From the sequence record OR427838.1: DNA of 64,000 bases; one strand, written 5' to 3'. The DNA is from Escherichia phage fDHCT2. Under the pieces are notes generated by a model, which saw only the letters and a program-made list of their open reading frames with translations, did no database searches and was not told the origin of the DNA. Both the position numbers and the translations under genes were made by a program. Shown one piece after another: positions 36,371 through 36,643 of the stretch. Within the stretch, counting starts at the first letter, position 1; the number at the start of each line of letters is the position of its first letter.

Positions 36371-36643
36371 TTATTTTAGATAAATTGCGTATTTTTTATA
36401 ACCAGCCGTCTCGTGGCGCAGCCCTTTTTCATTAGCAAAACGTTCAATATTGTTAATTTGATTCTGGTCTAGTTCTGAAGTATCAAATACAAAAAAGTTT
36501 CGCTTATTGCCTAAAGTTACGTGATTAGTCAAATCGATGTTATAGAGATGATTTATATTATCAATCATGGTCTTAACAGATTTGTTAATTTTTACTTCTT
36601 CATTAAGAATAGATTCAGCGATAAATTCTTGATAGGTTTTCAT
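36371..36643 (-). CDS. ipI: internal protein I-like (CTS-bearing, 90 aa)
   Basis: N-terminus [11 protein letters not shown]; adjacent to 57B as T4 ipI; rest of sequence divergent; ATGA overlap with 57B stop. Confidence 0.5.

Follow-up and report, generated by a model that had tools for sequence, protein, structure and literature searches.

The gene analysed here, ip9, occupies positions 36371..36643 (minus strand) of the window, by which we mean the whole 64-kb stretch of DNA under study. The ORF list and the sequence give it an ATG start, 90 codons and a TAA stop (36371-36373). Directly upstream is 57B (36640..37095, minus strand), a member of the Acb1 anti-CBASS nuclease family (Pfam PF23474, E=8.4e-59; for the anti-CBASS function of Acb1 see PMC9117128), and the ATG of ip9 overlaps the 57B stop codon TGA as ATGA (…GAG GAT TTA AAA TGA / ATG AAA ACC…). 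The motif GAGGA (36650..36654, minus strand), within the 3' end of 57B and 6 nt before the ip9 ATG, is a putative ribosome-binding site. A longer version of the ORF, started by a TTG at 36661, extends into 57B and has no support from homologues; it was discarded. On the 3' side of ip9 are homologues of T4 trna.4, trna.3 and trna.2 (PHROGs 1692, 1411 and 2023), and genes for tRNA-Met and tRNA-Arg are also found downstream. This gene order is the one around T4 ipI and around the gene annotated as 'Ip9' in phage IME08. The initial annotation had placed the ORF at the ipI position, and it does lie there, directly after 57B and before the trna.4-like gene as in T4. The 12 kb around ip9 share 91-96% identity with Dhakavirus genomes (IME08 relatives, QL01, WG01), and the window is recognisable as DNA of a T4-like coliphage of the JS98/IME08 type.

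A sigma-70-type promoter-like site (TTTACA, 17 nt, TACTAT, with TG before), which is a consensus match only, is present at 36339..36367 on the minus strand. In the consensus scan this site starts 4 nt past the ip9 stop codon and faces the trna.4-like gene; the ip9 cassette has its downstream edge here. Similar GTTTAC…GATACTAT sites are found ahead of ip cassettes in Enterobacter phage CIP9, in locus L015 and in Citrobacter phage Moon, and ip9 genes of the VR7 type have the late-promoter motif TATAAATA just upstream. No such canonical late promoter was found near ip9 of the window, the nearest on the minus strand being at 40052-40059, and no intrinsic terminator was found in 35600-38200. With neither a promoter-like site nor a late promoter ahead of it, ip9 of the window is presumably read from upstream transcripts and coupled to 57B. 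Its expression at late times, when heads are assembled, has no explanation from the promoters that were found.

The predicted protein is 100% identical to IME08 gp133, annotated as 'Ip9, internal head protein, similar to RB15 and K3 Ip9'. It shares 78% identity with RB15 Ip9 (UniProt Q38376) over 90 of 90 residues and 78-79% with Ip9 of RB32 and RB33, and it matches PHROG 7673, 'internal head protein', with E=2.9e-56 over residues 1-90 of 90. Compared with Ip9 of RB15, K3, RB32 and IME08 it is the same protein in the same slot after 57B. Searches with tblastn detected Ip9 in 199 of 50,697 phage records (195 full length), and a HMMER scan of 1.84 billion representative proteins returned only 11 relatives, nine of them of 66-87 aa and two of 71 aa that are apparently truncated or frameshifted, plus one 861-aa fusion. 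No family was assigned to Ip9 by scans of Pfam and NCBIfam. The name Ip9 reportedly goes back to Repoila et al. 1994 (EMBO J 13:4181); our use of it rests on the GenBank and UniProt annotations and on citations in PMC12373910 and PMC3012670.

The internal proteins of T-even phages have been described as 'a highly diverse set' with only the capsid targeting sequence in common (PMC3012670, citing Repoila et al. 1994), and at least 10 of them have been reported (PMC12373910, citing Repoila et al. 1994). Since the reviews already describe this diversity and Ip9 is already annotated, both the gene and the phenomenon are on record. The gene in the window is identifiable as that of the already named internal head protein Ip9 and is nothing new as a gene; as the outcome of a genome scan it is ordinary, being a gene with an annotation and a name, at a locus whose polymorphism is textbook knowledge. 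What is new is modest: a probable tag-mediated deletion junction, sister cassettes left unannotated in IME08, and homologues without a tag or in fused form in three other lineages. Ip9 is nevertheless among the commonest uncharacterised cassettes, and it spans several genera of Tevenvirinae that have a use, or a proposed use, in phage therapy. A literature search on Ip9 found no phage paper, and searches on Ip4, Ip7, Ip8 and Ip10 found only irrelevant papers.

Pairwise dN/dS between ip9 of the window and copies from other genera ranges from 0.05 to 0.12, and in codons 45-90 from 0.03 to 0.06; in the most distant pairs the synonymous sites are saturated. Across 16 close relatives, residues 45-90 hardly vary. 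Thus Ip9 is under strong purifying selection, strongest in the folded C-terminal half. Taken together with the full-length match to IME08, the occurrence in 199 records and the PHROG 7673 assignment, the low dN/dS identifies ip9 as a real gene and not a chance ORF. Between Dhakavirus and loci of the Tequatrovirus/Moonvirus type, Ip9 is 78-80% identical, compared with 80-84% for 57B and 38-47% for trna.4. Ip9 is therefore about as conserved as 57B and is not fast-evolving; the variability of the locus is one of cassette content. The description of internal proteins as hypervariable in the initial annotation accordingly holds for which cassettes occupy the locus and fails for the sequence of Ip9 itself.

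The protein divides into three parts, all on the minus strand. Codons 1-10 (36614..36643) encode the capsid targeting sequence, or tag, which was read from the sequence and ends in I-A-E. Codons 11-19 (36587..36613) form a variable linker between tag and folded domain, with the lowest conservation in our alignments A1 and A2 and a reduced mean pLDDT (68 over residues 11-20). Codons 20-90 (36374..36586) make up the folded Ip9 domain, as delimited by the AlphaFold2 model, by both alignments and by stand-alone and fused homologues that span exactly this part. The ten residues of the tag are identical to the first ten of T4 ipIII, and the N-terminus fits the pattern MK(T/S)(Y/F)x(E/D)F... followed by an (L/I)-x-E prohead-protease site, so that the capsid targeting sequence noticed earlier at the start of the ORF is indeed present, as a ten-residue tag with an I-x-E site. 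In T4 IPI the solved mature chain, 2JUB, begins right after I-T-E19, which supports the (L/I)-x-E cleavage rule and predicts a cut in Ip9 after I8-A9-E10, leaving Ser11 as the next residue. Mature Ip9* as predicted has 80 aa, 9.4 kDa, a pI of 8.0 and a net charge of about +1. The IPII- and IPIII-like proteins of the window have a pI of 9.6, and the near-neutral character of Ip9* in comparison argues for a specific binder and not for a DNA counter-charge. The same N-terminus is found on four other ORFs of the window, including members of the PHROG 'internal virion protein' families 7857 and 5341; matches to the 'internal virion protein' families that correspond to T4 Ip2 and Ip3 are located at 24280-24582 and 24624-25220. 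By eye, the 198-aa ORF matching PHROG 5341 looks like T4 ipIII.

Ip9, IPI and the cassettes of the slot

T4 IPI, translated from NC_000866 (L002:7592-7879), aligned with Ip9 by BLASTP in the N-terminal tag region only (16/43 identities, E=0.008), and the mature parts, IPI* and Ip9*, gave no BLASTP alignment at E<=100. The alignment proposed in the initial annotation has thus been carried out and reveals no high identity to IPI; the remark made there, that the ~80 aa beyond the tag do not resemble T4 IPI, is borne out. No homologue of IPI was found anywhere in the 64-kb window, nor of Bas37_0260 (by tblastn) or Bas37_0261. The two proteins are alike in genomic slot, in small size (90 aa for Ip9 and 95 aa for IPI), in having an N-terminal capsid targeting sequence with an (L/I)-x-E site, and presumably in their route of packaging and injection. 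They differ in the type of tag, which is the 10-residue IPII/IPIII kind in Ip9 and a 19-residue leader in T4 IPI, and the mature part of Ip9 is not homologous to IPI*. The fold predicted for Ip9 is also different and lacks the arrangement of IPI*, in which helices at the N and C termini flank a pair of beta sheets.

These comparisons bear on the view that Ip9 is a highly diverged orthologue or allele of ipI that keeps both the IPI fold and the GmrSD target. The common slot and the kind of N-terminal tag speak for such an origin, but at the sequence level it is refuted by the mature parts, which fail to align even at this permissive cutoff. A PHROG scan of Ip9 leads to family 7673; its three other matches are weak (E>=4e-4), and at least two of them cover little beyond the N-terminal tag region. 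Furthermore, true IPI homologues at high identity exist in other genera, for example in OLB35. We consider orthology to ipI scarcely credible. In place of the 'divergent allele' of IPI first suggested, the gene is identifiable as a known, named and non-homologous cassette (PHROG 7673, with complete identity to IME08 Ip9) of the polymorphic ip slot.

The content of this slot was surveyed by scanning fetched loci for ORFs that start with the tag, anchored on 57B and trna.4. Between one and three tag-bearing ORFs are found in the slot, in combinations that differ between phages. Ip9 is alone in the window and in Enterobacter phage CIP9, and IPI is alone in T4. QL01 and VR5 have a 74-aa ORF and Ip9, and IME08 and IME341 a 69-aa ORF, a 74-aa ORF and Ip9. 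Locus L015 contains Ip9 and a 102-aa ORF, locus L016 a 103-aa ORF and Ip9, and Citrobacter phage Moon a 127-aa ORF, Ip9 and a 102-aa ORF. Among VR7-like loci, L012 has Ip9 followed by ORFs of 92 and 77 aa, and L013 and L014 have Ip9 and the 77-aa ORF.

In the window Ip9 is the sole cassette and overlaps the 57B stop codon, whereas in IME08 two further tag-bearing ORFs precede it. These two ORFs are unannotated in the RefSeq record of IME08 and match PHROGs 23867 and 8765. A side-by-side comparison with the IME08 junctions places a probable recombination junction, ATGAAAACCTAT, at 36632..36643 (minus strand): its first 11 nt and the sequence upstream match the start of the first IME08 cassette, and from the next base onward the sequence is that of IME08 ip9. 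Through ATGAAAACCTA the window equals the IME08 junction of 57B with the first cassette, bar two substitutions further upstream, and from TCAAGAATTTATCGC… onward it shows no difference from ip9 of IME08, which itself starts with ATGAAAACATA. This pattern of matches points to a crossover at the very start of the repeated tag-coding sequence, within a dozen bases, which would turn a three-cassette array into a single cassette or the reverse. Read as a deletion, which is the tentative direction, the crossover would have removed two cassettes (515 bp). Judged from this junction, the tag doubles as a recombination handle.

The Ip9 domain outside T4-like phages

Homologues of the folded domain occur in phages that are not T4-like. 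In Guernseyvirinae (CR01 and five IMG/VR contigs, 34-45 kb) there is a 72-aa protein that corresponds to Ip9 residues 19-90 with 50-53% identity. The copy in the Kagunavirus-like phage CR01 (51% identity by tblastn; PHROG 7673 match, 3.4e-27) heads a rightward block of small genes that diverges from the helicase genes. Another copy, of 74 aa, with 46% identity and also without a tag, lies among small unannotated genes of Seuratvirus SHIN8 (Queuovirinae). The CR01 and SHIN8 copies have no capsid targeting sequence, with in-frame stops upstream, and homologues without a tag start at about Ip9 residue 19-20. Thus these siphovirus copies have small unannotated neighbours, no 57B alongside and no tag, whereas Ip9 of T4-like phages is tagged and sits in the ip slot.

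Ackermannviridae carry the domain as one module within a far larger protein, of 755 to about 1100 aa. The module is the C-terminus of Kuttervirus pertopsoe gp086 (755 aa; 33% identity; matches to PHROG 3867 and to PHROG 7673, the latter at 2.2e-08), and it is internal in a protein of ~1096 aa of ZQ1 (Ackermannviridae; 45% identity over 61 residues) and in the 861-aa metagenomic protein. The gp086 protein begins MAIPSFLNFLEES, gp087 begins MKPFIEYFKEQ and gp088 MKGFKDFLTEA; the starts of gp087 and gp088 resemble T4 tags. Annotations describe both gp087 and gp089 as homologous to 'unknown structural proteins' from phage Limestone. Prohead proteases similar to T4 gp21 (36-38% identity) are present in ISTP3, heyday, PH4 and Bue1, phages of 144-164 kb that we take to be Ackermannviridae.

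On this distribution, two of the families may deliver the Ip9 domain with the capsid and the other two may just express it. We infer that the small-gene block of the Kagunavirus-like phages is early, which would fit a cytoplasmic job at the very start of infection. Queuovirinae contain 7-deazaguanine in their DNA and ViI-like Ackermannviridae hypermodified thymidine; we know of no DNA modification in Kagunavirus. With the modifications of the T4-like phages, three of the four lineages thus have modified DNA. The Guernseyvirinae, Queuovirinae and Ackermannviridae do not make hydroxymethylcytosine DNA, and hence the target of the domain need not be an enzyme specific for that base. A wider interpretation, which we regard as unlikely though not far-fetched, is that the Ip9 domain (71 residues) is a portable anti-defence module of at least four phage lineages with three modes of delivery, namely injection from the capsid, expression from a stand-alone gene and inclusion in a giant protein. 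In place of a single strain-specific enzyme, the target would then be some conserved host factor or modification-sensing nucleases as a broad class, and no internal protein before Ip9 would have had a reach across phage families. The presence of the domain without a tag in unrelated phages also means that one plasmid-expression assay could serve several phage families.

Predicted structure and possible functions

The AlphaFold2 model of Ip9, made from an alignment of 16 sequences, has a mean pLDDT of 80.3. It predicts helices at residues 4-13 (the tag) and 21-33, strands at 42-44 and 50-54, a helix at 60-73 and strands at 76-79 and 84-88; the folded domain would thus consist of a helix, two strands, a helix and two strands. 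Foldseek gave no match to the PDB at E<=0.001 and a sole match, to one unnamed 535-aa protein, in BFVD. Used as a profile against the sequences in the PDB, alignment A2 retrieved no match. The Ip9 motif GLRHE(T/S)xG…KK is similar to the R3H domain of SMUBP-2 (…VHQIAEEHGLRHDSSGEGK), the sequence of which was verified against 1MSZ, and the local similarity spans Ip9 residues 58-84. The two align by BLASTP with 8/19 identities (E=7e-5 for the single comparison) and by hhalign over 27 columns (P=7.7e-4, probability only 25%), but R3H was picked out as a candidate first and tested afterwards, and these P-values therefore overstate the evidence. All 14 members of the Ip9 family that were searched against Pfam R3H (PF01424) lack a match at E<=10, and in the hhalign alignment the Arg and His that define R3H domains, with three residues between them, fall on I63 and E67 of Ip9. 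For these reasons Ip9 is not filed under R3H. Membership of that family was rejected, with signature residues and profile match both absent and a weak structural resemblance only.

A looser version of this idea is that Ip9 is a small binder of nucleic acid or nucleotides, with an R3H-like beta-alpha-beta-beta core, that rides on, protects or escorts the DNA (at its ends, at nicks or during ejection). Besides the local similarity to SMUBP-2, it can draw on the listing of 2lrr by Foldseek with a probability of 0.84, and on a conserved basic cluster (K47, R48, R68, K73, R76, H77, K83, K84). On the other side are the low hhalign probability, the missing Arg and His, the absence of a Pfam R3H match, a net charge of only about +1 and the post hoc nature of the comparison with its overstated P-values, so that we consider such a role improbable.

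In considering function, we distinguish what is seen directly (its tag with the cleavage motif, its place in the slot, the family to which it belongs, the purifying selection on it and its unrelatedness to IPI) from what is proposed by analogy (packaging, cleavage, injection and inhibition). The analogy is with T4, where the route by which internal proteins are packaged, processed and injected has been described (PMC3012670). By this route the tag would steer Ip9 into the scaffolding core of the assembling head; a T4-type prohead protease would cut past Glu10 to produce Ip9*, 80 residues and nearly neutral, which would be kept in the head with the DNA; and Ip9* would be ejected with the DNA into the cell ahead of any phage gene expression. 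There the 71-residue alpha/beta domain would bind and block a host nuclease that attacks the incoming sugar-modified hydroxymethylcytosine DNA. Ip9 is very probably packaged and injected, and it is likely to be an anti-defence inhibitor. That its target is a type IV enzyme is a more tentative proposal, to which we give somewhat less than an even chance. As a single statement, our best explanation is that Ip9 is an injected inhibitor of a host nuclease, most likely of a type IV restriction enzyme that IPI does not cover; we hold this to be about evenly balanced against all other readings.

The choice of target follows from precedent. Internal proteins act ahead of phage gene expression, and every one characterised so far disables another type IV enzyme: Ip1 blocks GmrSD of CT596, Ip2 GmrSD of ECOR21 and Ip3 GmrSD of ECOR17 (PMC12373910), and Bas37_0260 blocks McrBC (bioRxiv 10.1101/2025.11.20.689424). 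Type IV enzymes are thus inhibited, with narrow and non-overlapping specificity, by each of the four tag-bearing internal proteins whose target is known, and an injected nuclease inhibitor is therefore the best guess for Ip9. The suggestion in the initial annotation that the protein blocks a modification-dependent restriction system of another specificity is therefore a reasonable one for Ip9, by the same analogy. IME08 encodes a protein homologous to the candidate arabinosyl-transferase of RB69 (PMC6024577), which suggests that the DNA of this group is probably glycosylated hydroxymethylcytosine DNA, exposed to type IV enzymes and thus in need of inhibitors. The slot directly after 57B as for T4 ipI, the full identity to an annotated Ip9, the strong purifying selection and the window's lack of homologues of IPI, Bas37_0260 and Bas37_0261 also favour an injected nuclease inhibitor. 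Three observations stand against it: the domain is also found in phages without hydroxymethylcytosine DNA, Ip9 is highly conserved where an arms race with a hypervariable target would usually leave another signature, and ip9 of the window has no canonical late promoter of its own.

The first two of these would be better accommodated if Ip9 were an injected anti-defence protein whose target is not a type IV enzyme but an early host factor common to many enterobacteria, such as another nuclease, a sensor of incoming DNA or a CBASS partner. This would account for the use of one domain by unrelated phage families, as seen in the homologues without a tag (45-53% identity) in Kagunavirus-like and Seuratvirus phages and in the fused copies in Ackermannviridae. 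The 78% conservation between genera and the particularly low dN/dS of the C-terminal half point the same way, as does the translational coupling of ip9 to Acb1 in the window. Both the spread of the domain across families and its high conservation count in favour of this broader target. However, the Acb1 link is not general, since other phages have cassettes or a promoter-like site between 57B and Ip9; and with modified DNA in Queuovirinae and Ackermannviridae the distribution still fits modification-dependent nucleases, for example of the broad GmrSD/DUF262 family. The record of four out of four characterised tag-bearing internal proteins with type IV targets also weighs against it, and we regard a target of another kind as possible, with a clearly smaller share of probability than our best explanation, of which it is the main rival. 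Far less probable is that Ip9 passively fills the head or serves as a counter-ion, without any specific target, and is kept only since tagged proteins get packaged. T4 heads do hold about 1000 molecules of internal protein, and tagged foreign proteins are packaged (PMC3012670), but Ip9 is near-neutral and not basic, strong purifying selection acts on its folded domain, and the domain is retained without a tag in phages that would not package it.

If Ip9 is an injected nuclease inhibitor, knowledge of its target would be of use in host-range prediction and would provide the toolbox with one more inhibitor. A close parallel is Bas37_0260 of phage KarlGJung (MZ501089, 145553-145786), a 77-aa protein at the ipI locus with the same ten-residue tag and, like Ip9, a non-IPI cassette. 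Its mature sequence is unrelated to that of Ip9 (tblastn against the window matched the tag only) and belongs to PHROG 8111. The two are not the same protein, an identity ruled out by the separate PHROGs (8111 and 7673) and by the restriction of the match to the tag. In the VR7-like locus L012 Ip9 is found in one array with a 78%-identical homologue of Bas37_0260, which suggests that Ip9 has a different, non-redundant target. T4 Ip2 and Ip3 have the tag and the logic of delivery in common with Ip9, but they are encoded at another locus, are basic (pI about 9.6, compared with 8.0 for Ip9) and have no sequence relation to it past the tag.

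Probable internal protein genes of fDHCT2

The tag-bearing ORFs in the window suggest that fDHCT2 packages five or more distinct internal proteins. The second ip locus consists of three such ORFs, all on the minus strand, which encode proteins of 99 aa (23461-23760; PHROG 2667, 'internal head protein'), 100 aa (24280-24582; PHROG 7857) and 198 aa (24624-25220; PHROG 5341), the likeness of the last to T4 ipIII being judged by eye. The fifth ORF with a tag (33922-34386, minus strand) is located past the tRNA genes and not within the classical ip loci. Its 154-aa product, which begins MKTYNEFLTEQ and has a pI of 9.5, belongs to PHROG 2280 (function unknown) and is probably another uncharacterised internal protein. 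IME08 differs in carrying a 205-aa variant at the equivalent place, annotated merely as orf129.

The 57B gene (36640-37095, minus strand), which shares an ATGA overlap with ip9 in fDHCT2, is a clear homologue of the anti-CBASS nuclease Acb1, and together 57B and the ip slot constitute a small anti-defence island. Many phage records still label 57B as 'RNA ligase' or 'hypothetical'.

Cassette exchange and expression signals in the ip slot

The slot holds one cassette in fDHCT2 and three in IME08 (L001, NC_014260), where tag-bearing ORFs of 69 aa (4486-4695; PHROG 23867) and 74 aa (4774-4998; PHROG 8765) are found between 57B and Ip9; neither ORF is annotated in the RefSeq record. Comparison of window positions 36632-36643 (minus strand) with 4486-4497 and 5001-5012 of the IME08 locus traces the difference between the two arrays to a crossover in the repeated tag-coding sequence, within its first ~12 nt. 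Cassettes seem to be gained and lost by recombination at this conserved tag.

A mosaic gene is present in the Mosigvirus OLB35 (L005, 2900-3291), where it is annotated as 'ip7 protein' and adjoins a true IPI homologue. Its N-terminal part corresponds to the 102-aa PHROG 2667 family and is followed by the final ~35 residues of Ip9. Since the gene lacks a tag and is immediately preceded by stop codons and an Ip9 fragment (…NFFIFDT…), it is probably a recombination remnant. In phage KarlGJung/Bas37, an 85-aa ORF (L028, 1364-1621) that begins MKTFKEFATKTTITESSHG… is annotated as 'internal head protein ipI'; past the leader, no likeness of this protein to T4 IPI is visible. The HIDEN-SEQ supplementary table lists insertions in this ORF and in the neighbouring 57B homologue as depleted in one comparison versus a clinical strain.

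The signals upstream of Ip9 cassettes vary between phages. VR7-type phages have a TATAAATA late-promoter motif (L012, 3990-4001), and early-type promoter-like sites, GTTTAC…GATACTAT, are found at 3945-4000 in the loci of CIP9 (L011) and Moon (L018) and in locus L015. Neither the late-promoter motif nor the promoter-like site is present upstream of ip9 in the window. The timing of Ip9 expression may differ from phage to phage.

The Ip9 domain in other phage families

Stand-alone, tag-less Ip9-domain genes encoding 72-74 aa are found in the Guernseyvirinae phage CR01 (L003, 4007-4225), where the gene stands first in a block of small, rightward-oriented genes that lack annotation, and in the Seuratvirus SHIN8 (L025, 2492-2716). 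The SHIN8 copy is annotated as 'internal head protein', a label that is probably wrong, since this is a siphovirus protein without a tag.

The Kuttervirus pertopsoe, a Salmonella phage of the Ackermannviridae, harbours a cluster of genes (L004, 1991-5150) with T4-like tag N-termini: MAIPSFLNFLEES in gp086, MKPFIEYFKEQ in gp087 and MKGFKDFLTEA in gp088. The C-terminal end of gp086 (755 aa) is an Ip9-like domain, and T4 gp21-like prohead proteases are present in phages with genomes similar in size to that of pertopsoe. Taken together, the tags, the Ip9-like end of gp086 and these proteases suggest an unrecognised internal-protein system in the Ackermannviridae.
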